A stretch of 64,000 nucleotides of DNA from Actinomycetes bacterium (GCA_029263055.1 JAJCYG010000099.1:64083-128082), one strand, 5' to 3'. Shown: positions 8,086 through 59,052, counted from the stretch's first letter. Notes: generated by a model from the letters alone, not told the origin. A program made the numbers and translations.

Positions 8086-9360
8086 CTACTTTTTAATTGC
8101 TTGCCAGGTGCGTTGGCTGGCGCCGTGGTGGGTGGTGAAGATGGAGGCAGCTTGTTGGCCGGTTTGGATTGCTTGGTCGGGATGGTGGAGTAGGTCTGTT
8201 ATTTTTTCTTCGAGCTCAGTTTTGTCTGAGACACAAAATGCTCCCCTTAATTTTAAGAGTTCGCCGGCGGCTTGGCGGAAGTTTTCCATGTGAGGGCCAA
8301 AGAGAATGGGTTTGGCAAAGATGGCTGGCTCTAATGGGTTTTGGCCGCCAAAACCAGATAAGCTCCGTCCCACATAAACAATGTTAGCTAGTCCATAAAC
8401 TTTATAAAGTTCTCCAATGGTGTCTAAAAGAATAATAGGGGAGCGGGCATTGCGTTTGCCTAATTTAGAACGAAGGGTATAGTTGAGCCCTAGTTTGGTT
8501 AAGTTTTTTTCAATCTCTTTCACGCGGGTGAGGTGGCGAGGGGCTAAGATTAGTCGCAGCGTATAGAATTTTTTGCTGAGCTCTTGATAGATTTCAGCAC
8601 AGATTTTTTCTTCATTGCCGTGTGTGCTTCCTGCAACCAAAATGAGATCGGTCTGCTCTACTCCATAAATCTGTTTGATCTCATCTATTTCAATGGCACT
8701 TGGTTTTTTTAAGTTAGCTGCATCAAACTTAATGTTTCCGGTGACCTGACACTTGTTTGAATCAAGCCCAAGTCCTTCAAACCGTTTCTGATCTTCATTG
8801 GTTTGAACCAGAACATGATCAAATTGGTTTAATACATGTTTAACCCAGATATGAACAAGCTGATACCGTTTATAAGAATGATCTGAAATGCGCCCATTGA
8901 TTAAGCTAAGAGGGATCTTTTTCTTTTTTGCCACACTCACAAAACTAGGCCAGAGCTCGGTTTCTAAAATCCAAATCATTTTTGGATTTATCTGATTCAG
9001 TACTTTTTGAGCAATGGGGTAAAGATCAATGGGGAAATAAACACAATTTAATTTTTTGCTTCGAAGCAAATCAATTCCTGTCATGGTGGTGGCACTAAAA
9101 AAGAGTTGGTACTGAGGAAAAGTAAGTTTGATCTCATCTAAGAAGGGGATGATGGTCTGTATTTCACCCACGCTAGATCCATGAATCCAGAGAACTGGTT
9201 TTTTGGATTCAGAGAGTGTTTGTTTAAGAAAGCCGAGTCGTTCGCCGAGTCCTGCTCTGTAATGCTTTTGGGTGAGAACCAACAGTATTAGAATAGGTGA
9301 GGCACAAATTAAGATGATAAAAAGAAATAAGTTATAAAGGAGTAAGAACATAATAGTCAA
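8086..9360 (-). CDS. waaA: 3-deoxy-D-manno-octulosonic acid (KDO) transferase
   Basis: 424 aa; N-terminal TM anchor then LWIHGSSVGEIQTIIPFLDEIK... (GT30 KdtA signature HGSSVGE); implies lipid A/LPS-type outer membrane. Confidence 0.85.
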   Translation of the reverse strand: MTIMFLLLYNLFLFIILICASPILILLVLTQKHYRAGLGERLGFLKQTLSESKKPVLWIHGSSVGEIQTIIPFLDEIKLTFPQYQLFFSATTMTGIDLLRSKKLNCVYFPIDLYPIAQKVLNQINPKMIWILETELWPSFVSVAKKKKIPLSLINGRISDHSYKRYQLVHIWVKHVLNQFDHVLVQTNEDQKRFEGLGLDSNKCQVTGNIKFDAANLKKPSAIEIDEIKQIYGVEQTDLILVAGSTHGNEEKICAEIYQELSKKFYTLRLILAPRHLTRVKEIEKNLTKLGLNYTLRSKLGKRNARSPIILLDTIGELYKVYGLANIVYVGRSLSGFGGQNPLEPAIFAKPILFGPHMENFRQAAGELLKLRGAFCVSDKTELEEKITDLLHHPDQAIQTGQQAASIFTTHHGASQRTWQAIKK

Positions 9361-10271
9361 GCTCTTGGATGGGCTGAAACATAAACTTTTTTCAGCAGCT
9401 CGGTGGTGACATGTGTGTAGATTTGTGTGGTTGATAAATTTTTGTGCCCTAAGAGTTCTTGAACTGAACGTAAGTCAGCGCCGCGTTGTAATAAGTGTGT
9501 GGCAAACGAGTGGCGCAAGGTATGCGGTGTTACTTTTTTAGAGGTGATCTGGATCACGTATGTTTTAAGTATGCGTTCAATGCTACGGGTTGTAAGACGA
9601 CCCCCTTTAGAGTTCACAAAGAACGCTTCTTTAGCAGGGATGGTTTTAAATCCTTTACGAGCTGCTTTGCCTGTTTTAAAGAAAACAGCCCGGATGTCTA
9701 AGTAAGCATTCATGGCTCGAATAGCGGGCATGCCGAGAGGGCAGAGTCGTTCTTTTTTCCCTTTCCCTTTTACCTTGATGATTTCACCCAGCAAATCAAC
9801 ATCGCTTAAGTTTAATCCTGCTAATTCACTTACCCGGGTACCACAAGAATAGAGTGTTTCAAAGATAGCTTTATCTCGCATCCCTGCTGGATCATTGGTT
9901 TTAGGGAGAGATAAGAATGCTTCAACTTCTTCTTCGGTTAAGAAGTGAGGCAGTTTTTTTTCTTTTTTAGGTGTATGGAGTGAGCTGGCAGGATTGGTTT
10001 TTAAAATGCCTTCACGGACTAAAAATTTAAAAAAGGAACGGAGAGAGGCGCATTTTCGGGCAATAGACGATTTCACATATTCTTTGTCATGCAGTGTACC
10101 TAAAAAACGGCGGAGCATTAAATGGTCTACAGATTTTAATGAAGAAATATTGCTCTTTTTTAAAAAATCAAAAAACTGATTCAAGTCTCGTTTATACGCA
10201 CTGGCTGTATGTTGTGAGATATTCTTGATTGTTTCAAGGGTTTGAAGAAAGTCTTTCAGATAAGCTTGCAT
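9357..10271 (-). CDS. Tyrosine site-specific recombinase, XerC/XerD family
   Basis: 304 aa; C-terminal catalytic region HTLRHSFATHLLQRGADLRSVQELLGHKNLSTTQIYTHV (R..HxxR..Y); cannot distinguish XerC from XerD from sequence alone. Confidence 0.85.
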   Translation of the reverse strand: MQAYLKDFLQTLETIKNISQHTASAYKRDLNQFFDFLKKSNISSLKSVDHLMLRRFLGTLHDKEYVKSSIARKCASLRSFFKFLVREGILKTNPASSLHTPKKEKKLPHFLTEEEVEAFLSLPKTNDPAGMRDKAIFETLYSCGTRVSELAGLNLSDVDLLGEIIKVKGKGKKERLCPLGMPAIRAMNAYLDIRAVFFKTGKAARKGFKTIPAKEAFFVNSKGGRLTTRSIERILKTYVIQITSKKVTPHTLRHSFATHLLQRGADLRSVQELLGHKNLSTTQIYTHVTTELLKKVYVSAHPRA

Positions 10272-13662: not shown

Positions 13663-14743
13663 TTAAGGACTCCTGAATCACTTCATTAAGAAGGTCTTCA
13701 GGTACGTCCGTGCGTTGAGCCACTTTTCCTATTTTTTCTAATAGGATAAATTTAAGTTTACCGTCTTGTACTTTTTTATCGACATTCATATGTTTTCTAA
13801 CATTTTCTACAGAAAGCCCTTTAACTTGAGTTAAAAGACCTGCTTTTTGAATGAGCTGTTCAATCGCATTAACTTCATCGATTTTACACAGGCCCATCTT
13901 ATGAGAAAGCTTGGCTGCGGCAACCATACCCACAGCAATGGCTTCGCCATGGCGTAAATCTTTATATCCTTCAGCAGCTTCATAGGCGTGGCCAAAGGTG
14001 TGGCCGTAATTTAATACGGCGCGCATGCCTAATTCTTTTTCATCCATTTCAACAACCATGGCTTTGATTTCACATGACTTGGCAATGGCAGTTGTTAAAG
14101 GCTCTGTCTCTAAATTTAAAAGCGCTTCCATGTTTTTATCTAAAAAATTTAAAAAAGCATGATCCCAAATAATGCCGTACTTAATGATTTCAGCAATGCC
14201 TGCTTTAAATTCGCGTTCAGGTAATGTTTTTAAAACATCTAAATCAATTTGAACAGAGCGGGGTTGATAAAAAGCCCCAACTAAATTTTTTCCTTCAGGC
14301 AAGTTGATTCCTGTTTTGCCCCCAACACTGGAGTCGACTTGAGCTAAAAGAGTGGTGGGGATCTGAACAAATGGAATGCCACGTAAATAAGTGGAAGCCA
14401 CAAATCCACCTAAGTCACCCACTACGCCGCCGCCAAGTGTTAATAAGAAAGAACGTCTGTCTAATTTGAGTTCTAACATTTTTTTCCAAATACCGGTTGC
14501 CGTTTCAATGGCTTTAGAAGGCTCGCCTGCTGGAATTTCAATTAAAGAAAGATCAAAACCATTATCAGTCAAATGATCTAAAATCTTTTTTCCGAAATGA
14601 GGAAAGACATTAGAGTCTGTAATGAGCGCTCCCTTTTTACTCAAAGAAAGATCGCTTAATACTGAAGCAAGATTGGCAAGTGTGTTGCTTCCTACGTTAA
14701 TGTCATAACTCCGTTCACCTAAGCGAACATGAACTGTTTTCAT
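13655..14743 (-). CDS. aroB: 3-dehydroquinate synthase
   Basis: 362 aa; DHQS motifs LGGGVVGDLGGFVASTYLRGIPFVQIPTTLLAQVDSSVGGKTGIN and HGEAIAVGM; overlaps aroK start. Confidence 0.85.
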   Translation of the reverse strand: MKTVHVRLGERSYDINVGSNTLANLASVLSDLSLSKKGALITDSNVFPHFGKKILDHLTDNGFDLSLIEIPAGEPSKAIETATGIWKKMLELKLDRRSFLLTLGGGVVGDLGGFVASTYLRGIPFVQIPTTLLAQVDSSVGGKTGINLPEGKNLVGAFYQPRSVQIDLDVLKTLPEREFKAGIAEIIKYGIIWDHAFLNFLDKNMEALLNLETEPLTTAIAKSCEIKAMVVEMDEKELGMRAVLNYGHTFGHAYEAAEGYKDLRHGEAIAVGMVAAAKLSHKMGLCKIDEVNAIEQLIQKAGLLTQVKGLSVENVRKHMNVDKKVQDGKLKFILLEKIGKVAQRTDVPEDLLNEVIQESLNG

Positions 14744-15261
14744 TTAGTCTGTCCTAGTTTCTTTATAATTTTTTTAGCTGATTCACAAGCGGTCTGTCCG
14801 GTTGTAGAAACAGAAAAAGCAGCTGCTTTCTTATATAGCGGCCGTCGTGATTTTAATAACTTTTGCATGGTTTGAAAAGCATTTTTTGTATTTAATAGAG
14901 GACGTTTCTTATTTTTTGATGTTCTAGAATAGATTTCCCTCTGGCCTGCAGTTAAGCAAACCACCGTGGATTTGCTTTGCATGTCCCGTATATTGAGGGG
15001 ATTGACCACAATTCCACCCCCGGTTGAGATCACACGCTTTTTCTTCTTAAGTGCTTTTTGCAGCATGCGTCGTTCCACACGCCGAAAATAAGGCTCGCCC
15101 GAATCTGAAAAAATCTGAGCAATAGACCGTTTCTCAGCTTTCTCAATCTCAGTATCTATATCGAGAACCTGCCACTTGATCTTACGCGCCAAATAGCGTG
15201 CGACCGAAGTTTTGCCTGTTCCCATAAATCCGATAAGTAAAATATTTTCTGTTTTCATCAA
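14740..15261 (-). CDS. aroK: Shikimate kinase
   Basis: 173 aa; P-loop ILLIGFMGTGKTSV at N-terminus, size and context with aroB. Confidence 0.8.
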   Translation of the reverse strand: MMKTENILLIGFMGTGKTSVARYLARKIKWQVLDIDTEIEKAEKRSIAQIFSDSGEPYFRRVERRMLQKALKKKKRVISTGGGIVVNPLNIRDMQSKSTVVCLTAGQREIYSRTSKNKKRPLLNTKNAFQTMQKLLKSRRPLYKKAAAFSVSTTGQTACESAKKIIKKLGQTK

Positions 15262-15276
15262 TTGATCTCGTATTAA

Positions 15277-16389
15277 TTACCAATTTAAATTATAGCTTGA
15301 ACTCCGCCCTTTTGAAGGATTTTTCTTTAAAAAGCCTTTATCGAGCAATTCTGATATTTCTCGAAAGGCAGTGGCACGACTTATTTTTGCCATGGAAACA
15401 TACTTTCTTGTTGTTAATCCTCCTTGAAACCCTTGTTTTCCTGCATTCAAAAGTTTGTTCACAATCTTGATTTGTCTTGAATTGAGGTTGGCTTGATTGT
15501 GTTTTTGCCAAAACCGAGATTTTGCCAAAACATTTTCAATTAATTTTTCGGCATTGGTGACAGCTCGCTCGTGACAACCTAAATACCATTTTAGCCATTC
15601 TGTAACATTAAGCTCTCCTTTTTGGCTTTTTTCTAAAATACGATAGTATTCTTTTCTTTCTTCCATTATTTGAGAGGAAAGGCTGTAATAGCGTCGATTT
15701 AGATTTTCATCTTGGGCCAAAGCCATGTCTGTTAAGGCTCGGGCAATGCGTCCATTTCCATCTTCAAAGGGATGGATTGTGACAAAGTAAAAGTGTGCGA
15801 GTCCTGATCGAATGATTCCTTCTTCTTTGTTAAGAGTTGTTTTCCACCACAATAAAAACTGTTTAATTTCTGCTTCTATATTTTTTCCTGGTGGGGCTTC
15901 ATAATGAATTTTTTCTTTACCTATTGGTCCCGACAAAACTCTCATAGGTTCATTTCGCTTTCGCCATTTTCCTGTTTGAATAGGACGGAGTCCTACCTGT
16001 CCTGTAGGAAAGAGAGCTGCTTGCCAATGTTTGAGTCGAGTGGTTGTTAGCGGTTGCTCAAACTGTTGAGTGGCATCTAATAAGACTTCAACTAATCCAT
16101 CGATTGACCGGTTAGATGGGGGCATGCCAGCAGAGGGGAGCCCTAGGTGTTGTGCGACAGAAGAGCGAACGGATTCTTTGTTTAACTGTTCTCCTTCAAT
16201 AGCTGAAGTCTTGAGTGCTTCTTCAGTTAAAATGTTGGCTTGAGCTTCTTGGTTGAGTTCAAATCCTAAATTTGAGACCTTGCTCAACAGCTTTCCTTGA
16301 GCCAAACGGGCAGAACTGATCAAGGGGAGTAAGCTTTTGCTTTCCCATTTAAATTTCGGCCAGTTTTGATGTTGCCAGATATAAGGCAA
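15277..16389 (-). CDS. Fic/Doc family protein (class II Fic, carries its own inhibitory motif)
   Basis: 370 aa; Fic active-site motif HPFEDGNGRIARAL; N-terminal TSAIEG fits the [ST]xxxE[GN] autoinhibitory helix; TTG start preceded by AGGAGGG. Confidence 0.8.
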   Translation of the reverse strand: MPYIWQHQNWPKFKWESKSLLPLISSARLAQGKLLSKVSNLGFELNQEAQANILTEEALKTSAIEGEQLNKESVRSSVAQHLGLPSAGMPPSNRSIDGLVEVLLDATQQFEQPLTTTRLKHWQAALFPTGQVGLRPIQTGKWRKRNEPMRVLSGPIGKEKIHYEAPPGKNIEAEIKQFLLWWKTTLNKEEGIIRSGLAHFYFVTIHPFEDGNGRIARALTDMALAQDENLNRRYYSLSSQIMEERKEYYRILEKSQKGELNVTEWLKWYLGCHERAVTNAEKLIENVLAKSRFWQKHNQANLNSRQIKIVNKLLNAGKQGFQGGLTTRKYVSMAKISRATAFREISELLDKGFLKKNPSKGRSSSYNLNW

Positions 16390-16493
16390 TTAGCCCTCCT
16401 AATCGCTTCAAATTATGAAGCAATTATACATGCTAATCGCTTCATTTACAAGAGGGTCATGTAAGTTCTTTGTTGTGAACTATTTAAGTGAGA

Positions 16494-17318: not shown

Positions 17319-18320
17319 TTAGTTAAAACTAAATCGAACAGGAGGAGCCATAAACTCAGGGCCAATTGGAGTATGAATCTCTTCAGCCACAATCTGATCG
17401 ATTTGTTTGAGTGTTTCAGAGTAGATCCGTTTTTTGAGTGTTTGTGCGTTTTGTTTGGCTTGAGTGGCGTTACGTGCGCCAACCAAGGCACTGGTGACAC
17501 CTGGTTGATTTAGCGTCCATAAAATAGCGAGTTGGCCCACGCTCATGTCGTGTGCTTTGGCTAAGGTTTCAAGCCGAGTCACGCAGTTTAAGTACATCTT
17601 TAATTGCGCGCCTTTAAATTTAGGATCGGCACTACGAATATCTGTATCAGGAAACGAAGCTGATTCTTTAAATTTACCTGAGAGAAGGCCGCGGCATAAA
17701 GCGCCGTAAGTTAATGTGCCGACATTTTTTTTCACACACCATGGCAATGTTTTTTCTTCAATGCCTCGTTCGTATAAATTGTAAGGAGGTTGAAGCGAAG
17801 CAAGGAGCGTGTATTTACGTGCTTCATTCATTTGTGCAATGCTGTAGTTGCTTACACCAATGGCTCTGATTTTCCCTGATTCTAAAATTCTATTTAAGGT
17901 TTGCATGGTCTCTTTGATTGGGGTGGTTAAGTCTGGCCAATGAATTTGATAGAGATCAATCACATCGGTTTGCAATCGTTTGAGGCTGTCATCCACTTCT
18001 TTGATTAAACGTTTGCGACTTGAATTGCGGCGAATTTTACTTTGATCGCGGCTCCATTCAAGTCCCCCTTTTGTGGCTAAGAGTACTTGGTCGCGGCATT
18101 TGGCTTGCTTGATTGCTTTACCTACAATGGTTTCTGATTTTCCGAATCCATAAACAGGGGCTGTATCAATAAGGTTGATGCCGTTTTTAACAGAACAGAC
18201 AATGGCTTGGATCGCTTCGTTTTCTTGGCTGCCACCCCACATCCAGCCTCCAGTGACCCAGGTGCCTAGACCAATCGGAGAGACTTGAAGATCGCTTTTG
18301 CCTAATTTTCTGAGCGACAT
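17319..18320 (-). CDS. Aldo/keto reductase family oxidoreductase
   Basis: 333 aa; AKR hallmarks (IDTAPVYGFGKSE, LQTDVIDLYQIHWPD, IRAIGVSNYS). Confidence 0.8.
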   Translation of the reverse strand: MSLRKLGKSDLQVSPIGLGTWVTGGWMWGGSQENEAIQAIVCSVKNGINLIDTAPVYGFGKSETIVGKAIKQAKCRDQVLLATKGGLEWSRDQSKIRRNSSRKRLIKEVDDSLKRLQTDVIDLYQIHWPDLTTPIKETMQTLNRILESGKIRAIGVSNYSIAQMNEARKYTLLASLQPPYNLYERGIEEKTLPWCVKKNVGTLTYGALCRGLLSGKFKESASFPDTDIRSADPKFKGAQLKMYLNCVTRLETLAKAHDMSVGQLAILWTLNQPGVTSALVGARNATQAKQNAQTLKKRIYSETLKQIDQIVAEEIHTPIGPEFMAPPVRFSFN

Positions 18321-19174
18321 AAGTATTTTTCTAAAGCGGTTTGCATGGTTTCAACAGGAGCTGGTTTGCCTGTCCAAAATTCAAATGAGAGGGCGCCTTG
18401 GTGAACAAGCATACTCAGTCCATTGAGCACTTCCATTTTGGATTGTTTGGCCACTTGAATCCAATTGGTTTCGCCATGATAAATCAGGTCGTAGAACAAC
18501 GTCCCTTTTTTAAAGAAAATAGGGGAGACAGGAATTGGATCGCTTGGATTTAACCCGAGTGTTGTGGCATTAACCACAATATCAATGTGTTCTAAATCTT
18601 CTTTAGAACGAATTTGATGATCTTCTAAAACATGGGGTGAGCAATAAGTAAAATGGTGATCAATGTGTTGTGATAAAAGATCAGCCCGTTCCCGTGTTCG
18701 ATTGTAAAGATAAAGTTCTTTAACGCCAGCATCTGCAAGTGCCACAGCAACGGCGCGAGCGGCTCCGCCAGCTCCTAAGACTAAAGCATTTTTACCTTTT
18801 GGATTAATTCCTTTTTCTTCAAGAGAACGGATAAAACCAATTCCATCGGTATTGTGGCCGTGGAGTTTATTTCCTTTAAAAAGAACGGTATTAATGGCGC
18901 AAATCTTTTTAGCTTCTTCTGAAATGGTGTCCATTAAAGTGAGAGCTGCTTGTTTGTGGGGGACTGTGATATTGACCCCGGAAACACCCATTTGAGGGAG
19001 TGTCTTAAGAACTGTTTCTAGATTATCCACACCTACTGGAAAAGGGACGTAGGTTGCTTTGATGCCGAGTTCTTGAAACGCGGCGTTTTGCATGACCGGT
19101 GAAAGCGTGTGCTTAATAGGGTGGCCAATGATTCCAAAAAGTTTAGTGTCACCGTTTAATTGAATATTTCCCAT
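18302..19174 (-). CDS. aroE: Shikimate dehydrogenase
   Basis: 290 aa; N-terminal shikimate-binding region LFGIIGHPIKHTLSPVMQNAAF and NAD(P) Rossmann LVLGAGGAARAVAVAL. Confidence 0.8.
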   Translation of the reverse strand: MGNIQLNGDTKLFGIIGHPIKHTLSPVMQNAAFQELGIKATYVPFPVGVDNLETVLKTLPQMGVSGVNITVPHKQAALTLMDTISEEAKKICAINTVLFKGNKLHGHNTDGIGFIRSLEEKGINPKGKNALVLGAGGAARAVAVALADAGVKELYLYNRTRERADLLSQHIDHHFTYCSPHVLEDHQIRSKEDLEHIDIVVNATTLGLNPSDPIPVSPIFFKKGTLFYDLIYHGETNWIQVAKQSKMEVLNGLSMLVHQGALSFEFWTGKPAPVETMQTALEKYLCRSEN

Positions 19175-20809: not shown

Positions 20810-23692
20810 CTATAGGGAAGCTTCGACTGCAGAAGTAGGGAATATTTCTGATTCTAAAGGGATGTTTGAAATTAAAAAACGGTCTTGAACTGTTGAGAGG
20901 TATTTGGGAACGGTGGTGCGCCAAAAATAGTCTTCTTCTAAATCCTTAGAAATTTTATCGAGTTGGCCTGAGGCGTCAGCAGAAATGATCTGGTTGATTA
21001 GTTCTAATTGGACCATGCCTCTTTTTAAAAACCGTTTGCTTTCTTTAAAATTACTTTTTTTAGCTAAGGAATAACTCTTTATAATATAGAGCTGAGCTAA
21101 TTGTTCTTTGGTTTTAATTGATAGGTATCGATGTTGTTGCTCAACTTTTTTTCTTCTAAGCCCATATTCTTTAGCTTGTGCCATGATTTCTTCTTGGTCT
21201 TTAAGTTGTAAATAGGCGGCAGCATAATCAACTTCATCTAAAATGTCTTCTTCTTGTTCTTCAAACTCTTTAAGTTCAGCAAGCTTTTGATAAAAACTGA
21301 GTTTATTCAAAACTCTAAAACTTTTAATTGCTGGGTTTAGGTAATAGAGGACTTCATCTGGATTAACCTCTTCTTTGCTTAGAGCATTTAATGCTTCTTT
21401 AAAATTAAAGGTATAGTTGTTGAAGTCCCCTTGTTTATTAAGGGGTAATCGTTGAAAAGAACTAAAGCTTGTTTCAAAAGATTTGGTTTTCTTTTTCCAG
21501 AGTGTTTGTCTAAAAAGATATTCTAAAAGACTTGTGTAAGTTGAGAATGAATTAAGTGAGCGAGGAGAAACCATGACGTTTGTTCTATATGAATAAATAA
21601 AAAGTAGAATAGAAATCTTAACAGTGAGCCATCCATTACTTAATTGTGATCTAGAAAAAGTATAGATTTTATAAACGATAAATGATGCTCCTACAATGAG
21701 TGCGGTAGAGGTGGAAAAGATTAAAATGGGTATAGAAAAAGTGACAAAGAGGAAAGTGAAAATGCCTGCACCACTGCTTATAAGAAAGTCTTTCCATCCT
21801 TTTTCTCTGCGGCTGGCTTTGGTGACTCCAATAGCCGCGATCAGGCCTATTCCTATTAATGAAGGATGGGTGTAGGGCCATAAGTTGTGAGTCCAATCAA
21901 TGAGGTCATATATGAATTTAAAATTCATCATGTTCCCTTCAGCAAGGAAAAGGGGAAAGAGTAGAGGCCATGCCATGGAGTTGAGTCGAACCCCATTAGA
22001 TTTTTTGGTTTTTGTTACAGAAGGTTTTTTCTTAATTTTAGGTTTGGCGCCAAATCGTCCTTTTCTTGGTTTCTTTTTAGGTGAAAGCGGTGCATAAAAA
22101 GAGGCTAGAATTCGGCTCTGTTTGCCTAAAAGTTCAGCAAGTTTGGCTAAGTTAAGATGAAGCACTTTGCCTTCGGTATAAAGAATGTTTTCTCCATTAG
22201 CAGGGAGGTTAAATGTGACAGCCCCTCGTCTATAGTTTGATTCAAAGACGAGATGTGTATCTGAATGAATAAAAATTTCTTCAGTGATGTACGCGCCTGA
22301 AGAAGTGGTTGTTTCAAAAACAATAGGAGTGGGTCCTTTAGAATGAAGGTAGCCAAACGAGATCCCTAAAGTGCGTGTTTTGTCAGAGCCAGGCGTAATA
22401 GCAAGAGCCATTTCATTTTCATGAGTGAGTTTGTTTTGGTTGTTTAGATGAAACAAACTTCCTTTGATGGGTCCATCGTCATATGTGAGCGAAATTTCAT
22501 GGTGTTGAATTTCGTCAGATTCTGTTGATGGGATAAAACGTCGATAAAGAGAATGGGTCCTTCCATTTCGAACGGTTTTCATGTTGGAGAGCATTGTTAG
22601 AAAATGTTTTTTTAAAGCTTCTTTTGCTTGGTAAAATCGCTCTAGCCATTCTATTCTTGTTTTTTCTTCTTCTGATAGTTCTGTTTCTTCAGGTGGTGTG
22701 GCATTGTTGTTTTGATCTTGATCTTGTTCTTTCTTGCTTGCTTGACTGTTTGAAAGCAGAGCTCTTAAATTAAGATTGGCTTTAAAAATTCTTTTAATGA
22801 AAGTGTCATTCACATAGCGTTTGATCAGTATGTCGAGATCTTTTCGATTCATGCCGGTTTTAGCTAAAATTTGTTCGTCTTTAAAAATAGGGTGTAACAT
22901 CAGGTGAATGTGCGCTCCAGTTGGGTTTTTCTCAAATTCTCTTAGCACAAGAGGGAGCATGCGAACTCTAAGGCGATCTGTTCTTACTTGCCATAAGTGA
23001 TTTAAGAAGTAGTGGAGTATTTTATCACGCATTGAAAAAGAAACAATTCCTTCAAACTGACTCACTTCAATTGTGGCGAGAAATTCTTCAAGTGCATCTG
23101 CTGTTTCATCAGAAAGAACTCTTTTTTCTTCATTAATGGTTTCAAGACCATAAGTAACGGTATCAATCCAAAAACTCTTTTTTCTTCCTGGTCCGTTTAA
23201 AACTCTCTTTGTTTGAATTTGAGGAACATGTTTGATTAATAAGTTTAGAGCCTTTTCATGACAGGCTTCATCAGGAGCTGTTTTAAGGACTAAGCCAAAG
23301 GCGCTCGCAAAGTAATAACTATCCAAATGTTCTTCTAAAAAGAATTGAAAGGGGGTGAGCAATCTAAAAAAATCTTCTGAATTTTCCACGACAACTTTAT
23401 CTAATCCTTCTAAAAGAAGGTTTCCATTTCTTCTATTGAGCTCATAATGACTATTGGCTTGTATGGTTAAAAATCTAAAAATCGCTTGAGGAGTTAAGTG
23501 GAGCCTTTGTTTTGTTTTCAACTTTAAAACAAATGGAGGTGAATCTGGTGTTTGAATTGTTTTGGGCACAGCTGTTTTAGGGGCCAAAAATGAGAGATGG
23601 CGCTGAGTTGCTTCAGGCACACCAAAAGTGATCAGCAAGAACAAGCTGATTGCTTTTATCCAAATGTTGAATCGATACTTACTTTTAGACAC
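20810..23692 (-). CDS. Large hypothetical protein (960 aa): signal/TM N-terminus, central cluster of hydrophobic helices, coiled-coil-rich C-terminus
   Basis: Long uninterrupted ORF with coding-like composition; no recognisable catalytic motif; central region (about aa 560-700) holds several closely spaced TM helices. Confidence 0.6.
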   Translation of the reverse strand: MSKSKYRFNIWIKAISLFLLITFGVPEATQRHLSFLAPKTAVPKTIQTPDSPPFVLKLKTKQRLHLTPQAIFRFLTIQANSHYELNRRNGNLLLEGLDKVVVENSEDFFRLLTPFQFFLEEHLDSYYFASAFGLVLKTAPDEACHEKALNLLIKHVPQIQTKRVLNGPGRKKSFWIDTVTYGLETINEEKRVLSDETADALEEFLATIEVSQFEGIVSFSMRDKILHYFLNHLWQVRTDRLRVRMLPLVLREFEKNPTGAHIHLMLHPIFKDEQILAKTGMNRKDLDILIKRYVNDTFIKRIFKANLNLRALLSNSQASKKEQDQDQNNNATPPEETELSEEEKTRIEWLERFYQAKEALKKHFLTMLSNMKTVRNGRTHSLYRRFIPSTESDEIQHHEISLTYDDGPIKGSLFHLNNQNKLTHENEMALAITPGSDKTRTLGISFGYLHSKGPTPIVFETTTSSGAYITEEIFIHSDTHLVFESNYRRGAVTFNLPANGENILYTEGKVLHLNLAKLAELLGKQSRILASFYAPLSPKKKPRKGRFGAKPKIKKKPSVTKTKKSNGVRLNSMAWPLLFPLFLAEGNMMNFKFIYDLIDWTHNLWPYTHPSLIGIGLIAAIGVTKASRREKGWKDFLISSGAGIFTFLFVTFSIPILIFSTSTALIVGASFIVYKIYTFSRSQLSNGWLTVKISILLFIYSYRTNVMVSPRSLNSFSTYTSLLEYLFRQTLWKKKTKSFETSFSSFQRLPLNKQGDFNNYTFNFKEALNALSKEEVNPDEVLYYLNPAIKSFRVLNKLSFYQKLAELKEFEEQEEDILDEVDYAAAYLQLKDQEEIMAQAKEYGLRRKKVEQQHRYLSIKTKEQLAQLYIIKSYSLAKKSNFKESKRFLKRGMVQLELINQIISADASGQLDKISKDLEEDYFWRTTVPKYLSTVQDRFLISNIPLESEIFPTSAVEASL

Positions 23693-29520: not shown

Positions 29521-30309
29521 ATGAAATTAGGAGAAGAGATGGTCCAGGAACAGAATAAAGAAGCCGAGCTTGCTTATTACAGACAGTATGCCCAAAACCT
29601 TGAAGGGGCAGGAGAAGACTTTACCGAAGAGATCTTTAATATGCTCTTTGATAAGTTTGGTGCTGTAAATGGAAATGGGGCATTGCTCCTTGATGCAGGC
29701 TGTGGTTCGGGTATCTATGGCAAGCGTTTGGCTCAGCGTGGTTATCAAGCAACCGGAGCTGATTTGTGCGATGACATGGTAGAAATTGCCAACACACGTA
29801 ATCCTGTTGAAGGCTTTAAAGCCATTCAAGGTGATTTGGAAGACCTTTCTCTTTTTCCTGAAAACCATTTTGATGTGATCTTTTTTGGTCAAATGCTTCA
29901 CCACTTTCCTAATATTGCTAAAGTGATGAAAGCAACGCACCACTGGTTGAAGCCAGGTGGCAAAATGATGATCTTAGAACCGAATGGTTCTAATCCTGTT
30001 AATTTAATCAGTAAAGAGATTGGCAAGGTAATGTCCTTTTTTAGCAATGCTATGAAAGCTTCTATTGGAACGGAAAATGAACGAAGCTTAGGTCACAAAG
30101 AAATTTTAGGTTATCTTGATCAAAATCAAATGAAGATCTTGCAAAAGTTTTCTTTAGATTTTCGTGTTGAAATTCCAGAGGGGGATCCGATTCCTCCGGT
30201 GTTGCGTTTTATGGTGGGCGTGCGCGAGTTGACTTATCGACTTGTTGCCAACATCCTTCCTATTATGAATCGTGGTCGCATCATGCTCATGATTGCAGAA
30301 AAAGTGTGA
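29521..30309 (+). CDS. Class I SAM-dependent methyltransferase
   Basis: 262 aa; motif I LLDAGCGSGIYGKRL, acidic post-I residue, Methyltransf_11/25-like. Confidence 0.7.
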   Translation: MKLGEEMVQEQNKEAELAYYRQYAQNLEGAGEDFTEEIFNMLFDKFGAVNGNGALLLDAGCGSGIYGKRLAQRGYQATGADLCDDMVEIANTRNPVEGFKAIQGDLEDLSLFPENHFDVIFFGQMLHHFPNIAKVMKATHHWLKPGGKMMILEPNGSNPVNLISKEIGKVMSFFSNAMKASIGTENERSLGHKEILGYLDQNQMKILQKFSLDFRVEIPEGDPIPPVLRFMVGVRELTYRLVANILPIMNRGRIMLMIAEKV

Positions 30310-30719
30310 TGAGACGTTTATCGGTTCTCTTTCTTTTAATCTTCTTTTCTTTTAGCTCTGTCCCTCCTGTTTATTCTGTTGAACGTATTGAACGATTAAA
30401 AAGTCGTGTCAAAAGAGGGGTTAATTTTTATCGTGATGGTCGTTTTACAATCTCTAAGTTGACCAAGCAAGGTTTGGGAAGTGGAGCTACTTTGATCCGA
30501 GGTTTGGTGACTAATGACACTAATCGAAGAGCAGTTTCAGTTCAATTAGAGGTCACATGTTATGACAAAGAAAGTGATTTGATTGACTCTAAATTATTTG
30601 AAATCAACTACCTTGACTCCCGCCAAACCCAACCCTTCAAAGTCCGTATCCGAGAACGCGAAGACATCATCACCTTATTCGAAGCCAATATCCAGGACGT
30701 TATCTGGGACGAATTTTAG
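30306..30719 (+). CDS. Small secreted hypothetical protein
   Basis: 137 aa; signal peptide LSVLFLLIFFSFSSVPPVYS; 4-nt overlap with the upstream methyltransferase. Confidence 0.5.
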   Translation: MMRRLSVLFLLIFFSFSSVPPVYSVERIERLKSRVKRGVNFYRDGRFTISKLTKQGLGSGATLIRGLVTNDTNRRAVSVQLEVTCYDKESDLIDSKLFEINYLDSRQTQPFKVRIREREDIITLFEANIQDVIWDEF

Positions 30720-30745
30720 TATTAGGGAAATTTAAGGCACACTGC

Positions 30746-30965
30746 GTGTCGAAATGTTTCCACAAAGGGCCGTTCCATAAGCAACTTGCCGCCCGGCAAG
30801 TCACTTATTCCACTCATACTCGGATCCACACCCAGAAAAAGTTGCCTTCTTAGGCAGGGTCTCCCTCCGGTTCTGCTTCGCTGCACCTGCGGGAGCCCCT
30901 GTCGGAAGTCAACTTTCTCTGGGCCCCTGTCTCCTCAGATGCCCTTTGTGGAAACATTTCGACAC
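30746..30965. repeat. 220-bp unit closed by a perfect 25-bp inverted repeat (GTGTCGAAATGTTTCCACAAAGGGC / GCCCTTTGTGGAAACATTTCGACAC) enclosing about 170 nt of GC-rich, hairpin-dense sequence
   Basis: Read directly: arms at 30746-30770 and 30941-30965; internal local hairpins (CTTGCCGCCCGGCAAG; ATAAGCAACTTGCC/GGCAAGTCACTTAT); the left arm sequence also forms the 5' end of the second repeat copy at 58738. Confidence 0.7.
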
Positions 30966-31010
30966 TCCGTTGATCAAGTCTATATTTATAAAAGAATATT
31001 TAACCACGTA

Positions 31011-31235
31011 AAAATAATCTGAAAGATGTTTCCCCCGAACCTTTAAGGAATGTTGCCGCAAAGACGGAGCAAAAAATGTGAGGGAAAGAGCAAGACTGGT
31101 GTCTGAACGGAGCCTCGCGCCGAATGTGCGAAGCCATTCGGACCAGAGGCGCAGTGAGTTCATTCTTGCCCTCACATTTTTTGCGCAGTCTGCTGCAAAT
31201 TCCGGGTGAGGGGGAGACATCTTTCAGATTATTTT
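31011..31235. mobile_element. MITE-like element: 25-bp terminal inverted repeats (AAAATAATCTGAAAGATGTTTCCCC ... GGGGAGACATCTTTCAGATTATTTT, 1 mismatch) flanking a core of about 175 bp that is itself a long imperfect palindrome
   Basis: Read directly; core (31046-31210) is nearly identical, a few substitutions over about 170 nt, to 58752-58944; no ORF of its own (overlapping track ORFs are artefacts of the repeat). Confidence 0.6.
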
Positions 31236-31244
31236 GGACCTAGC

Positions 31245-32450
31245 TCAATCTGAAACAAAGAACGGGTTGAAGTTGACTTCAGGGGCGGCGAAGATCATCC
31301 ATAGGGCGCCGATGCTTGGAAAAGGGAGGTTGTGTGGCCAGGCTAGTTGAGGGGGGCCAATGATGTGTGGGAATCTTCCTGAAGGGAGTTTTAGTTTTTC
31401 CATTTCTGAATAAAAGTAATTGGCTTGTTGCAAAAAGCCGAGTTGTCTAAAAGCTAAAATCGCTCCAGCCACTCCTTCAATCCAAATCGAGTTATCAACA
31501 ATGCCATCTCCGTTTGTGTCTAGACGAGGATCATACGAATAGGTTACTTTTGAAAAACCTTCTGCTTTATTGGAGCGGGTGCGGTATTGCAACATCCACT
31601 TGAGTGCCATTTTATATTTTAAAGGAGATCGGCCGTGCAGTTTCTCCGTTGCTTTTAGAGAGAGAAGAGGCCATGTTTGAGAATCAAGCATTTCAGGAAA
31701 CGAAGAGATGTCTCCTTTGCTATTTAAAAAAGCGACGGCGAAATGTTCTTTTTGCCATAACTTATCTGTTAAAAATCGAGCCACTAAACGGCCTGCTTCA
31801 CGATAGCGAATTCGATTAAGTGGTTTTTGGGCAAAGACAGACATGGCGTAAAAGGCAGCCAAGCAGTTGGCATTTGCCTCGGTATTGCGCACATCTGAAT
31901 AAGGATAAGCCTTACCCAGTTTGACGCCGCCATAAGTAAAACTATTTGGATTTTTATCTTGATGGCTTAAAAGCCAGTCTGTATTTTTTTCAGCAAGTTT
32001 CCAAGCAAGTGGGTCTTTAGTTTTTTTGTAATAATGAAGCAGTGCCAACACCATCCAAGCATTAGGGCCGGTTGCGCGGTTCCATGCTGTAATCCGACCT
32101 GTTTGAATATGAAACGCGTCAGCCCAGGGGCCGTCTTCATCTTGGAGTTTTTCAAATCCCTGCACAATCTCTTTGGCTAATTGTAGATCTTTTTCTTCAC
32201 CTCTAAGCACCAGTAAGATTAGAGCTATAGCATTGGTGTAGGTATAAGAATTATGTGGATTAGAAGGGTCTGCTGAAGAGAGTGTTAATTTGGTTAGACT
32301 GTTTTGCTGTGAGATTAACCAATCATAATCAGCTTTAAACGGATCTAAATTATGTGCGGCAAAAGAAGTCGGCGTTGGTATTCCTACCAATAAAAGAGAG
32401 AGGAAAATAAGAAGTTGTTTTTTAATTTTCATGGAAAAGGAAGGTAACAC
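31245..32450 (-). CDS. Secreted hypothetical protein (401 aa), possibly alpha/alpha-toroid fold
   Basis: Signal peptide KKQLLIFLSLLLVGIPTPTSFA; repetitive helical hairpin-like segments (NAIALILLVLRGEEKDL..., NAWMVLALLHYYKKTKD...); function unknown. Confidence 0.6.
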   Translation of the reverse strand: MLPSFSMKIKKQLLIFLSLLLVGIPTPTSFAAHNLDPFKADYDWLISQQNSLTKLTLSSADPSNPHNSYTYTNAIALILLVLRGEEKDLQLAKEIVQGFEKLQDEDGPWADAFHIQTGRITAWNRATGPNAWMVLALLHYYKKTKDPLAWKLAEKNTDWLLSHQDKNPNSFTYGGVKLGKAYPYSDVRNTEANANCLAAFYAMSVFAQKPLNRIRYREAGRLVARFLTDKLWQKEHFAVAFLNSKGDISSFPEMLDSQTWPLLSLKATEKLHGRSPLKYKMALKWMLQYRTRSNKAEGFSKVTYSYDPRLDTNGDGIVDNSIWIEGVAGAILAFRQLGFLQQANYFYSEMEKLKLPSGRFPHIIGPPQLAWPHNLPFPSIGALWMIFAAPEVNFNPFFVSD

Positions 32451-35841: not shown

Positions 35842-36906
35842 ATGAATAATCCGGCTCAAATTATTTTTGCAAGTGCTTTAGGGGCATCAGTCTTGATACA
35901 TGGAATGGTCTATTCCGGGCTAGAGGTCTCTTCTATGATTGTTCCGGCTCAGCCTATTCAGGTCATGCCTCAAATGAAGCGCCCTCCTAAAGTGACGTTT
36001 GAATTCACAGATGCTCCTGATGACTTAAAAGATGAAGAGACGCCTCTAAAACAGACAAATAAGATTTCGAGTAAAAACAGTTCTGCGCGTGATTTGATTG
36101 CGGACAAAGTTAAATCTCCGCAAACAGGGCCAGCAGCGCCTGTAGTTAAAGATGGGGCGCAGCAATTGGCTAAAAAAAATCAGCCAGATCTTTACATACA
36201 AGATAAGAAAGGAGCGCAGGTTCCAAATCAAGATTACCTCACTCCTTTAGATCAGAAGCTTCCTTTAGAAGAAACATTTGAAGCCGAGCCTGATAAAAAA
36301 GAAGAAGCGATTGCTGAAATGAAAAAAGATTTGATTAGTTTAGAGAAATTAAAAAAAGATTTAGATAAAAAACTGTCTAAAAAAAGAGAAGACTTACTTG
36401 AGAAGCAAAAGAAAAAAGTTCAAAAAGAACGAACTCAAGAGATGAGTCAAACATATACGCCTCAAGGTAATGCCAAACAAGATAAGCGGGTTGTTGTTTA
36501 TGATCCGACACGCAACGTAGACACTTATCAAGCAGAGATGGTTCAAAAATTTGTGGCGACAGCCATTGATATTGGCTCTCCTTCATTTAGTTCTAACAAA
36601 CATATTTTAGGTCCTTACTTGGATCGTCTCAAAAGTCGAGTGTCACCGTTATGGCATTTGAAATTAGAATCACAAGATTCAGGAAGGCTCTTTAACACGA
36701 AAAAAGTGGTAATAGGGGTTCAAATATTAAAAGATGGAAGTTTAGGCGCGTTATTGATTCTTCAAGATTTTGGAGATGATCTGTTTAATAAACTTTGCTT
36801 AGACACTTTTATTGAGCTTGCCCCTTTTGAGTTTTTACCCACAGAGTGGAAGCAAGAGAGTGGGTTGGACCATTTGAATCTTATTTATCGATTTAAGGCG
36901 TATTAG
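35842..36906 (+). CDS. TonB/TolA-like protein candidate (N-terminal TM anchor, Pro/charged linker, C-terminal TonB-C-like domain)
   Basis: 354 aa; TM IIFASALGASVLIHGMVYSG; linker rich in P, K, E, D; C-terminus VVIGVQILKDGSLGALLILQDFGDDLFNKLCLDTFIELAPFEFLP resembles the TonB C-terminal beta-beta-alpha-beta fold ending F.P; assignment tentative. Confidence 0.4.
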   Translation: MNNPAQIIFASALGASVLIHGMVYSGLEVSSMIVPAQPIQVMPQMKRPPKVTFEFTDAPDDLKDEETPLKQTNKISSKNSSARDLIADKVKSPQTGPAAPVVKDGAQQLAKKNQPDLYIQDKKGAQVPNQDYLTPLDQKLPLEETFEAEPDKKEEAIAEMKKDLISLEKLKKDLDKKLSKKREDLLEKQKKKVQKERTQEMSQTYTPQGNAKQDKRVVVYDPTRNVDTYQAEMVQKFVATAIDIGSPSFSSNKHILGPYLDRLKSRVSPLWHLKLESQDSGRLFNTKKVVIGVQILKDGSLGALLILQDFGDDLFNKLCLDTFIELAPFEFLPTEWKQESGLDHLNLIYRFKAY

Positions 36907-36909
36907 AAC

Positions 36910-38568
36910 ATGAAACAAAACAGCTTTGTTTTTCTTCTTTTTATTTTGTTAACAGCCATCATGACTTTTCCTTTGGTCAAGACAATGTCTGTTTTTATGG
37001 ATACCACTGGAGATCCTTTTTTTAATGCATGGACCTTAGCTTGGACTCAGCATCAGCTCTTAACAGATCCGCTTCATTTGTTTGATGCTAATATTTTTTA
37101 TCCTTATAAATTGACTTTGGCTTTTTCAGAGCATCAAGTGGCTTCAGCTTTGTTGGCTCTGCCTGTTTATCTTTTAGGAGGAAGTCCTATCCTCGTTCAC
37201 AATGTGGTTTTTTTCTTAACATTTGTTCTTTCTGGTTTTGGACTTTATCTTTTAGTTAAAGATCTAACAGGAAATTCTCTTGCTGCAATTTTAGCTGGAA
37301 TGGCGTTTGCGTTTAGTTCTTACCGTTTTTCTCAATTAGCACACCTCCAGATTTTAGCATTTCAATGGATGCCATTTGCTTTAGTCTATTTGCATCGAGC
37401 ACTCAACCAACCTCAGTGGAAAAACTTTTTGCTTATGGGGCTGTTTGTTTTTCTTGTTTTAATGTCTTCTAATTACTTAGGTCTTATTTTTCTTATTTTT
37501 ATCAGCTTTTTTCTTCTTATTGTGGTTCCAAAAAAATGGTTTGAAGAAAAGGGGAGAGGGTTGAGACGTTGTTTTTTTACGTTGCTTGCTGTTGGAATTT
37601 TATTTCTTCCTTTTGCTTTGCCATATGTGAAAGTGAAAGAGGAATATGGTTTTTCTCGAGAATTAATTGATATGAAGCAGTACAGTGCTCGGGCTGAAAA
37701 CTATTTAGGTGTGAGCACTAATCACAAGTTCTATCCTAATAAATTAAAGAAAATGGGCAAGCCTGAAAGCAGACTCTTTTTTGGTTTTCTTGTGATGGGG
37801 ATGGCGTTTTTAGGTTTGTTGTTAGCTAAGAACATTTCTTTACGTATTCGTTTAGGCTATGGTGTTGTTTTATTGCTCTCATTTTTACTCTCAATGGGAG
37901 GAGGGGCAAAACTTTTTGGAATCAACTTAAATGGTTGGCCATACCAATTCTTTTATTCCTATGTGCCTGGCTTTGATGGAATGCGTGTGCCAGCCCGATT
38001 TGCGATTAATGTCGGTCTTTGCTTGGCTGTGCTAGCTGGATTTGGATTTGCTCTTGTGTTTCAAAAAATAAAGGGAAAACTTCTTTCTTGTTGTTTGGTC
38101 TTTCTTTTAAGCGCCGGGATTTTAGCTGAAGCATGGGCTGCTCCTTTAAGATATATTCACTTTGCTTTCAAAGCGCCTCCTGTTCACCCTTGGTTGGGGC
38201 ATCAAGATGATGTTGATGGGGTTGTTTTTTTACCTGCTTATATTAATAACTCAGTCCATTTAGAGATGAATTATATTTTTTGGTCTAATCTTCATTGGAA
38301 AAAAATAATGAATGGCTATAGTGGGTTTTTTCCTGCTGAGTGGAATGAATTTAAGTTAAAGCTTCGAGAATTTCCAACTAAAGAAACGGTTGATCATCTG
38401 CGTCGAGTAGGGGTAAACTATGTGGTGATTAACAAACACAAATATCCGCAAGATATGCTGAATAGAATGGAAAAGCGGATCAAGCGTTTTTCAAACGAAT
38501 TAGAACAGATTAAGAATTGGGGCGGTCAAACGGTTTATCGCCTTAAAATGAAAGGGATTGAAAATTGA
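36910..38568 (+). CDS. Polytopic membrane protein, putative GT-C-fold glycosyltransferase-like protein
   Basis: 552 aa, more than 10 predicted TM helices; N-terminal region with conserved acidic residues (DTTGDPFFNAW...) as in lipid-linked glycosyl/aminoarabinose transferases; overlaps the start of the downstream epimerase gene (TTGA). Confidence 0.55.
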   Translation: MKQNSFVFLLFILLTAIMTFPLVKTMSVFMDTTGDPFFNAWTLAWTQHQLLTDPLHLFDANIFYPYKLTLAFSEHQVASALLALPVYLLGGSPILVHNVVFFLTFVLSGFGLYLLVKDLTGNSLAAILAGMAFAFSSYRFSQLAHLQILAFQWMPFALVYLHRALNQPQWKNFLLMGLFVFLVLMSSNYLGLIFLIFISFFLLIVVPKKWFEEKGRGLRRCFFTLLAVGILFLPFALPYVKVKEEYGFSRELIDMKQYSARAENYLGVSTNHKFYPNKLKKMGKPESRLFFGFLVMGMAFLGLLLAKNISLRIRLGYGVVLLLSFLLSMGGGAKLFGINLNGWPYQFFYSYVPGFDGMRVPARFAINVGLCLAVLAGFGFALVFQKIKGKLLSCCLVFLLSAGILAEAWAAPLRYIHFAFKAPPVHPWLGHQDDVDGVVFLPAYINNSVHLEMNYIFWSNLHWKKIMNGYSGFFPAEWNEFKLKLREFPTKETVDHLRRVGVNYVVINKHKYPQDMLNRMEKRIKRFSNELEQIKNWGGQTVYRLKMKGIEN

Positions 38569-57972: not shown

Positions 57973-58668
57973 CTAATTGACAAATCGATATTTTAATAGA
58001 GTCCACAGAGCGGCAATGCCATCTCTCCAGGTTATTTTTTTGCCTTCATTAAATTCACGACCACAATATGAAATTGGCACTTCATAGATACGAATGCCCT
58101 GTTTCAAAATTTTTGCAGTTAGTTCGGGTTCAAAATCAAATCGATGAGAATTGATTGTTAAGCTTTGTATAATATCACGTTTTATCACCTTATAACATGT
58201 TTCCATGTCGGAAAGAGTTGAATTATAAAGAACATTGGTCATAAAGGAGAGAAACTTGTTTCCGACCCAATGGTGAAAAAACATGTTTCGGTGTTCTCCC
58301 GTAAACCTCGATCCATAAACGACTTCTGCTCTTCCTTTTTGAATAGGTAAGATTAATTTAGCGTAATCTTCAGGGTCATATTCCAAATCAGCATCTTGAA
58401 TCAGGACATAATCACCCGTGGCTGCGGTTAATCCGGTGCGAATCGAAGCCCCTTTTCCTTGATTAACTTGATGAGAGAGGAACTTTACAGAGCCGTTAAA
58501 TTCGGTTTCACAGATTTTACGGGTCCCATCTGTAGAGGCATCATCAATTAAAATGATCTCTTTTTCAATGCCTTCTAAAGAAACAGCTTGGACTTGCTTC
58601 ATGATCTCAAGCAAGGTTCCTTCTTCATTATAGACTGGAATAATTATCGAAAGTTTCATAAAGGCCAC
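57973..58668 (-). CDS. Family 2 glycosyltransferase (polyprenyl-phosphate glycosyltransferase, ArnC/Dpm1-like)
   Basis: 231 aa; SIIIPVYNEEGTL, IDDASTDGT, QDADLEYDPED (DxD). Confidence 0.8.
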   Translation of the reverse strand: MAFMKLSIIIPVYNEEGTLLEIMKQVQAVSLEGIEKEIILIDDASTDGTRKICETEFNGSVKFLSHQVNQGKGASIRTGLTAATGDYVLIQDADLEYDPEDYAKLILPIQKGRAEVVYGSRFTGEHRNMFFHHWVGNKFLSFMTNVLYNSTLSDMETCYKVIKRDIIQSLTINSHRFDFEPELTAKILKQGIRIYEVPISYCGREFNEGKKITWRDGIAALWTLLKYRFVN

Positions 58669-58737
58669 AACCCTAACAATTTTCCCCTATAAATACAACA
58701 AGAAAGGCCTGTGTTTGTCGTGTACTGAATTCAGGGT

Positions 58738-58969
58738 ACACTGCGTGTCGAAATGTTGCCACAAAGACGGAGCAAAAAATGTGAGGGAAAGAGCAAGACT
58801 GGTGTTTGAACGGAGCCCCGCGCCGAATGTGCGTCTGCCAAGGGGGCTTTAGCCCTCTGGCAGAAAGCCATTCGGACCAGAGGCGCAGTGAGTTCATTCT
58901 TGCCCTCACATTTTTTGCGCAGTCTGCTGCAAATTCCGGGTGAAGGGGAAACATCTTTTAGATTATTTT
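58738..58969. repeat. Second copy of the MITE-like core: the 5' segment ACACTGCGTGTCGAAATGTTGCCACAAAG, then a core nearly identical to 31046-31210 (a few substitutions) carrying a 31-nt dyad-symmetric insertion (58834-58864), then a right terminal inverted repeat GGGGAAACATCTTTTAGATTATTTT
   Basis: Read directly by aligning the two regions; lies in the divergent intergenic region between the GT2 gene and aroC; lacks the left terminal inverted repeat of the 31011 copy. Confidence 0.65.
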
Positions 58970-59052
58970 GGCACTAGCTGATGAACGTAGCGTAACCACC
59001 TATATGTCTAAAGGCTTGAAAGATGGGGGGAGGAGGTTTATACTAAGTCATT

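Follow-up and report, generated by a model that had tools for sequence, protein, structure and literature searches.

Long, branched hairpin repeats with a modular structure in the intergenic DNA of an uncultured bacterial lineage

Introduction

Classical bacterial MITEs comprise, for example, the Correia/NEMIS elements of Neisseria, the pneumococcal RUP and the cyanobacterial Nezha elements. ERIC/IRU and BIME are mosaic intergenic elements of enterobacteria, and REP/BIME and ERIC elements have been suggested to serve the host as two-way terminators, mRNA-stabilising hairpins or nucleoid-protein sites. The end hairpins of IS200/IS605 elements are about 20-30 nt long and resemble each other. REPINs have a length of ~70-110 nt and consist of two REPs of 20-40 nt with a conserved 5' GTAG. 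Their hairpins commonly carry compensatory changes (PMC3116915).

Here, we describe a real, non-coding, hairpin-forming repeat family with a modular structure, found in a 64,000-nt stretch of DNA that is referred to as the window. Two types of long hairpin, A and B, are placed side by side in a composite, and a second B copy lies at a distance. The repeats are new, while their kind, bacterial non-autonomous palindromic repeats, is already known; they are a modest addition that introduces no new principle.

With MITEs the elements share a small size (under ~600 bp), non-coding sequence, more than one copy and an intergenic position next to promoters or terminators, as well as terminal inverted repeats of 25-45 nt (one arm is missing from the copy B2), a foldback over the whole length, size variants that correspond to internal deletions, and presence or absence at orthologous sites. 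They differ in that the arms vary and the interior is conserved, the usual MITE having conserved ends and a free interior, and in that neither target-site duplications at the window copies nor, in the window and in plasmids, phages, E. coli or viral contigs, an IS with matching ends were found. The label "MITE-like", given in a previous reading of the DNA that used the sequence alone (the sequence-only reading), is roughly right in kind, but target-site duplication and a cognate transposase or IS are missing from the window, and we do not class the family with the classical MITEs.

The likeness to ERIC/IRU and BIME elements includes imperfect palindromes in intergenic, often transcribed DNA, mosaic combinations of modules and size classes produced by internal insertions at fixed points, comparable to a 31-nt hairpin at the apex of B. 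Nevertheless, the elements described here are about twice as long and belong to another host lineage, and a sensitive blastn search with positions 30725-31250 found nothing similar in 5,426 complete E. coli genomes. PATEs derived from IS200/IS605 resemble the composite in their different hairpins at the two ends, in the missing inverted repeat between these ends and in the missing target-site duplication; the hairpins here, in contrast, exceed 200 nt and are unrelated to each other, and three copies do not establish a conserved target tetra- or pentanucleotide.

The REPIN/RAYT system is similar in that the elements are non-coding and intergenic, that the replicative unit is a long hairpin, that clusters or higher-order arrangements are formed, and that target-site duplications as well as a transposase inside the element are missing. 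Moreover, compensatory changes keep the hairpin paired, here in the core of A and likewise in REPINs (PMC3116915). The elements are larger, with 205-235 nt for a single hairpin and ~520 nt for the composite, they have no REP headed by GTAG, and the core is branched and asymmetric. Since units of 20-40 nt, a GTAG head and a RAYT gene in the window are all missing, we do not file the family under REPINs.

Results and discussion

Units A and B1 form a composite between convergent genes

Three repeat elements were located in two intergenic regions of the window, A (30739-30972), B1 (31011-31245) and B2 (58728-58979). The elements of the family are found in intergenic DNA only and in both orientations, range in size from 205 to 252 nt and have a GC content of 55-61% (57-61% in unit A) compared to 40% for the window.

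Unit A (30739..30972, plus strand) is a long branched hairpin closed by 30-nt arms at 30741-30770 and 30941-30970, which are 93% complementary and confirm the adjacent inverted-repeat unit that had been noticed previously. B1 (31011..31245, plus strand), recognised by its inverted repeats and its fold, is a hairpin of 225 nt, and the repeat runs on to position 31245. Its terminal inverted repeats had been given as 25 nt with one mismatch (31011-31035 and 31211-31235), which is correct, and they extend to outer arms of 31 nt with 90% complementarity (31011-31041 and 31205-31235). Also the view of the core as an imperfect palindrome holds, with the inner arms at 31062-31089 and 31164-31191. The arms of B1 show an A-tract/hairpin/T-tract arrangement in both directions (AAAATAATCTG...CAGATTATTTT). 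Folding had been suggested as a check, and all three elements are much more stable than shuffled sequences: unit A with -116 kcal/mol and z -9.95, B1 with -121.8 kcal/mol and z -11.8, and B2 with z -4.6. For every arm motif, the number of matches expected from shuffled windows was 0.

A and B1 are separated by a spacer of 38 nt and together form a composite of 517 nt (30729..31245, plus strand), which is delimited by the alignment with B2 and by collinearity with a protein entry, P0001, described below. The composite ends do not form an inverted repeat with each other. Directly outside the B core, the stem repeats the inner portion of the A arm (CCRCAAAG) in degenerate form, and this resemblance indicates that the sharing of modules is real. 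An interpretation of B as a structural homologue of A was rejected, as the comparison by model R1 and blastn did not support it and the two hairpins are unrelated; the same tools found no further copies in 158,663 bases (the 64-kb window plus loci of 13 relatives, ~95 kb).

The composite nearly fills a gap of 525 nt between convergent genes. An ORF of 137 aa without Pfam match (30306..30719, plus strand) ends ~10 nt before it, and on the other side the stop codon of a gene for a secreted-looking protein of 401 aa without family match (31245..32450, minus strand) touches the right end of B1. B2 lies between the gene for a family 2 glycosyltransferase (GT2; 57973..58668, minus strand; 74% identity to the orthologue in the relative L028) and aroC, which encodes chorismate synthase (PF01264; 59053..60132, plus strand). 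Hence, the contexts are as had been stated, with convergent stop codons at 30719 and 31245 at the first copy and divergence of GT2 and aroC at the second. A promoter-like site at 59016-59044 is located downstream of B2 and upstream of aroC.

B2 as a probable derivative of the composite

In B2 (58728..58979, plus strand), an A-type left arm (58740-58766) is followed by the B core and by the right outer arm (58945-58969), while the left outer arm is missing. This agrees with the sequence-only reading, which had described a second copy 27.7 kb away that keeps only the right terminal repeat. The core recurs in two blocks, 31049-31130 in 58752-58833 (82 nt) and 31131-31245 in 58865-58979 (115 nt), each with 96% identity (E 3e-71 for B1 against B2 in an in-window blastn). 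Between the blocks, a dyad of 31 nt forms an apical hairpin on the B core (58834..58864, plus strand). This insertion had also been reported; it is shared by B2 and P0001, absent from B1 and occurs only once in the window. Furthermore, the left end of B2 (58728-58766) matches the left arm and flank of A at 30729-30767 over 39 nt with 90% identity, in line with the earlier remark on this 5' end. The right end of B2 is reproduced exactly by an independent Logan assembly.

These features had been interpreted as a chimera of at least three modules. The modularity is evident; an assembly from modules is the less economical explanation. In a global alignment of B2 with the whole of A+B1, only two events are required, a 296-nt gap (30753-31048) and the 31-nt insertion, and the gap is bounded by 15-nt direct repeats (AATGTTKCCRCAAAG). 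According to the boundaries of the alignment blocks, the first of these (AATGTTTCCACAAAG; 30753..30767, plus strand) marks the left end of the deletion within the left arm of A. The second (AATGTTGCCGCAAAG; 31049..31063, plus strand) marks the right end within B and is a degenerate copy of the inner A arm. As a single gap between direct repeats and one insertion suffice, B2 would most simply be a deletion derivative of an A+B composite and not a fresh assembly of three modules. The variable positions at the junction of B2 (G then A) do not correspond to a simple crossover product of the present window sequences, so the parent composite must have differed slightly there.

A third copy of the composite

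The sequence-only reading regarded the ORFs across the repeats as artefacts with a shared peptide. The peptide (HPEFAADCAKNVRARMNSLRLWSEWL) is indeed present in both copies, and the ORFs are artefactual: the 31-nt indel shifts the frame, and the 103-aa ORF across B1 has one database homologue only, P0001 (128 aa, NCBI only), which is itself a repeat-borne ORF. P0001 is encoded on an NCBI contig of 91,986 nt, compared to 192,105 nt for the contig of the window. It is collinear with the composite in tblastn and shows, in this order, the right half of B, then the 31-nt insertion and the left B half, followed by the left outer arm, a spacer that is 18 nt shorter than in the window composite, the A arm and hairpin 2 of A. 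Residues 36-65 span the 31-nt insertion and are 93% identical to B2. A HMMER search with P0001 in 1.84 billion representatives retrieved only P0001 itself and a spurious repetitive protein, and exact look-ups returned no record for P0001 or for the window proteins beside the first copy. A concatenated six-frame peptide query of 1575 aa found no match, but it missed even P0001 and is hence uninformative.

P0001 most likely stems from a paralogous copy in the same assembly. An orthologous locus of a close strain is unlikely, because the window AroC has no relative with at least 90% identity in the collection other than itself. B is documented in three copies and A in two or three in this genome (the two window sites and P0001), and each of the three B copies is joined either to A or to one A arm; B was never found apart. 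Since P0001 represents a third intact composite, comparison of the copies identifies a composite of the adjacent hairpins A and B with a length of ~520-550 nt as the unit that was copied in this genome. That B moves on its own is unproven.

The third copy also bears on the simplest explanation for two window copies with 96% identity, namely a one-off segmental duplication or gene conversion in this chromosome that involves neither a family nor mobility. The flanks of the copies are unrelated, P0001 is located on another contig, independent assemblies end inside the elements, and homologous A cores occur at other loci of another species (see below). We therefore consider such an event highly improbable; it is largely refuted by P0001 together with the match in the second species.

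The core of A is conserved in a second species

The sequences nearest to the window AroC have identities of 88, 85, 83, 80, 76 and 75%, and all of them originate from metagenomes or MAGs; matches at ~70% identity are scattered over several phyla. The relative with 85% identity (L006; GCA_040960375.1, 47% GC) contains two A-like elements at loci other than that of unit A. L006a (9420-9624) has arms of 45 nt that are 100% complementary, and L006b (1-124), which is inverted and located 100-230 nt upstream of aroC, is truncated where the contig ends. A covariance model (R2) built from L006a and L006b alone gave a single match in the 64-kb window, which was unit A at 30760-30951 (62.1 bits, E 4e-12). 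This indicates that the A core is a family common to two species.

The A core (30760..30951, plus strand) is composed of a closing stem, hairpin 1 with 11 bp, a linker and a compound hairpin 2, which is ~57 nt longer in the window copy. The unpaired linker (CACTCATAYTCG; 12-14 nt) is invariant in all three copies. Among the 49 stem pairs of the three sequences, 10 show a change in both partners and 1 in a single partner. Standard pairs account for 92.8% of the pair cells, compared to 34-47% in slid controls, and none of 500 shuffles reached any of five covariation measures. The interior is conserved, whereas the outer arms differ among the window copy, L006a and L006b. A conserved GTAG head and REP-like units are missing from A and B; the only GTAG lies in the hairpin 1 loop of L006a, and L006b lacks it.

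Compensatory changes had been named as the test for a structured RNA, and the outcome differs between the two hairpins. They are present in the A core, but B1 and B2, the two sequences available for B, differ at three paired positions with 0 compensatory changes (two break pairs and one gives a wobble), so the idea of a structured RNA gains nothing from B. It is conceivable that the A core, perhaps together with B, encodes a structured non-coding RNA in multiple copies, with a cis-regulatory role or as a small RNA, and is not selfish DNA. The strong covariation with almost no one-sided changes, the asymmetric three-way junction with its invariant linker, and the very stable folds of A and the L006 copies (z -8 to -20) are in line with this possibility. 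Furthermore, L006a ends 28 nt before the start codon of a PTS-EIIA gene in sense orientation. However, the surroundings of the copies are unrelated and either orientation occurs (downstream of a stop codon, between divergent promoters, antisense upstream of aroC), and the copies are present or absent among close relatives. The truncated B2 is still 96% identical to B1, which points to recent copying over selection, and none of the three differences of these two copies at paired positions is compensated. Outer arms that are long, perfect and specific to each copy would also be odd for an RNA gene. Compensatory change is known in the DNA hairpins of REPINs as well (PMC3116915), and as it is common there, the covariation of the A core alone is no argument for an RNA gene.

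The search in Rfam that had been suggested was negative: Rfam 15 gave 0 matches at the gathering score over the window, and relaxed searches with both sites and L006a gave only generic hairpins below threshold, for example a plant miRNA precursor with 49.8 bits against a threshold of 137. Overall, we regard an RNA gene as unlikely. The invariant linker is unexpected for a purely structural palindrome and is as compatible with an RNA as with a motif for protein recognition.

Several known structures were compared with the elements and rejected. The motif CUGANGA on the reverse strand of A recalls a hammerhead ribozyme, but a compensatory change in L006b breaks it and Rfam shows no ribozyme. Integron attC sites have a length of 57-141 nt compared to 205-235 nt here; the end boxes RYYYAAC...GTTRRRY (R''/R') are missing, no integrase or cassette array is located nearby, and the sole tyrosine recombinase (9357..10271) looks like XerC/D. 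A 6S-like RNA was dismissed on the basis of length, missing consensus boxes and the Rfam result.

Wider sequence searches returned chance or unrelated similarities at most. Plasmids gave one 38-nt chance match and phages none, and five patterns searched in viral contigs gave chance matches or none. The exact B-arm pattern SRGCAAAAAATGTGAGGGMAA had two single-arm chance matches in a genome collection that probably does not contain the source species; they come from a gammaproteobacterial and an Ignavibacterium MAG, where the DNA is coding or unrelated. In metagenome contigs, the gapped two-arm pattern of B matched one unrelated GC-rich palindrome only, probably a foldback of the assembly. A soil metagenome contig (L004, Ga0137417_1371396) carries at 3350-3950 a near-perfect GC-rich palindrome that exceeds 500 nt; it has no relation to the family and is probably an artefact of foldback during assembly. 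The start of contig L005, from the relative with 88% identity, was considered as a right end of B; the resemblance is loose and not significant. The same contig contains at 5874-5927 a hairpin with 25-nt arms, 96% complementarity and a 4-nt loop directly after a LOG-family (Lysine_decarbox) gene. Its appearance is that of a strong terminator, and it has no relation to A or B.

Filled and empty sites in relatives

An element occupies the site upstream of aroC in the window and also in L006, where it is a different, A-like family member; the site is empty in the relatives L028, L009 and L010. The spacer between GT2 and aroC measures 92 nt in L028 (AroC 80%) compared to 384 nt in the window, and the relative with 83% identity has ~100 element-free nucleotides between aroC and the upstream gene. 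In the relatives with 75-76% identity, toxin-antitoxin genes are found at this position. Similarly, ~258 nt including L006a precede the PTS-EIIA gene in L006, and the corresponding distance in L009 is ~11 nt with otherwise collinear flanks. Such orthologous empty sites point to gain or loss of an element, and presence or absence among relatives of 80-88% identity does not tell insertion from deletion. Mobility, which had been proposed as recent from the similarity of the two window copies, is plausible in view of the filled and empty sites upstream of aroC, although classical hallmarks of a MITE are missing.

Target-site duplications had been suggested as a further check. The flanks were read directly, and neither A, B1 and B2 nor the composite is bordered by direct repeats. 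At L006a, ATAGGG is a possible duplication that is ambiguous, as TAGGG also precedes unit A of the window on one side only. The flanks of L006a (9380-9420 and 9625-9651) contain extra sequence missing from the orthologous site of L009, with short repeated motifs (GGAGTTGCAATA, GGAGTTGAGAGA) and ATAGGG on both sides. This extra sequence may represent the true ends of the element or a target duplication of 5-6 bp.

Two assemblies break off within the elements: the Logan contig with the window aroC (L001) ends inside B2 at window position 58924, and the MAG contig of L006 ends inside its A core. This fits repeat-induced breaks, though the evidence is weak because further Logan contigs break off close to aroC where no repeat is present.

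The filled and empty sites are also relevant for a possible benefit to the host. The elements could be structural or regulatory DNA that is retained as a two-way terminator, mRNA-stabilising hairpin or nucleoid-protein site, was spread by recombination and is no longer mobile. The stop codon of the 401-aa gene directly adjoins B1, whose arms provide an A-tract and a T-tract both ways, the composite fills a convergent intergenic gap, and B2 is placed upstream of the predicted aroC promoter and not within it, all of which would suit such a role. On the other hand, a terminator scan did not call any canonical terminator formed by the elements, their stems of at least 100 bp go far beyond the needs of termination, the same sites are element-free and still working in relatives, and the differing contexts do not suggest a single regulatory role. 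Taken together, this makes retention for a host function decidedly unlikely.

The region upstream of aroC was seen to be a variable spot among the relatives. It contains ParE/Phd, HicB and an AAA_14/DUF4143 gene in L029 (240-2429), HepT/MNT, NTase_sub_bind and DUF433 in L030 (1168-2843), a 1292-aa HEAT-like protein in L009 (6021-9899), the A-like repeat in L006 (1-230), B2 in the window (58669-59052) and nothing in L028. On the other side of aroC, the adjacent 804-aa gene has a 784-aa counterpart in L005 (88%) and is missing at that position in the relatives with 85% and 83% identity.

Hairpin-dependent mobile repeats as the best explanation

With a probability of roughly 0.6, we interpret the family as small, non-autonomous repeats without coding function that act as a long branched hairpin, either of single-stranded DNA or within a transcript. 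Multiple copies, different loci in two species, empty sites, both orientations, an atypical GC content and rapid structural decay are all in keeping with mobile DNA. A single-strand mechanism that recognises the hairpin would account for the missing target-site duplication and the covarying core better than a cut-and-paste MITE.

An enzyme encoded elsewhere in the genome would recognise the folded core, and the element would be copied into intergenic DNA without target-site duplication, in a movement presumably closer to REPIN/RAYT or to single-strand transposition of the IS200/IS605 type than to that of a cut-and-paste MITE. The 48 window ORFs of at least 150 aa include no transposase, RAYT (Y1, PF01797) or IS; the window genes are ordinary chromosomal ones, such as nuo, topA, dprA, a xerC/D-like gene, shikimate and leucine biosynthesis genes and a Kdo transferase gene. 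If only those lineages that keep the hairpin went on to spread, the covariation would be explained. Inserted copies would then decay by rearrangements driven by short repeats and palindromes: B2 would have lost 296 nt between the two 15-nt direct repeats, and the 31-nt apex hairpin would have been either lost by B1 or gained by B2 and P0001. A function of B1 as a two-way terminator between the convergent genes may be a by-product.

It may be speculated further, and this we find unlikely, that the A core within its long, near-perfect, copy-specific arms is the recognition module of an undescribed hairpin-dependent mobile element, moving as single-stranded DNA or through RNA, or else a structured RNA of a new kind with several copies; in both cases it would be restricted to an uncultured lineage without cultured or annotated relatives.

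If confirmed genome-wide, the repeats would bring unusually long (more than 200 nt), branched, GC-rich hairpins that lack target-site duplications into the small set of non-autonomous elements known from bacteria. They would provide, in a lineage known from metagenomes alone, a case of a covarying, conserved interior with terminal arms that vary between copies. The repeats are also of practical relevance. They give rise to spurious ORFs, at least one of which has already entered the NCBI protein sets (P0001), and short-read contigs stop inside them (L001, L006), which matters for annotation and binning.

Further observations in the window

Five sizeable ORFs of the window are without Pfam match, with 960 aa (20810-23692), 804 aa (60129-62543), 552 aa (36910-38568), 354 aa (35842-36906) and 401 aa (31245-32450); four of them were scanned against NCBIfam and gave no match. 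The shikimate-pathway genes aroB, aroK, aroE and aroC are scattered over the window (13655-15261, 18302-19174 and 59053-60132) and do not form a single operon. Finally, two 31-nt direct repeats with 81% identity lie 34 nt apart at 16380-16444, at the start of a Fic/DUF4172 gene (15277..16389, minus strand) and in the spacer beyond.
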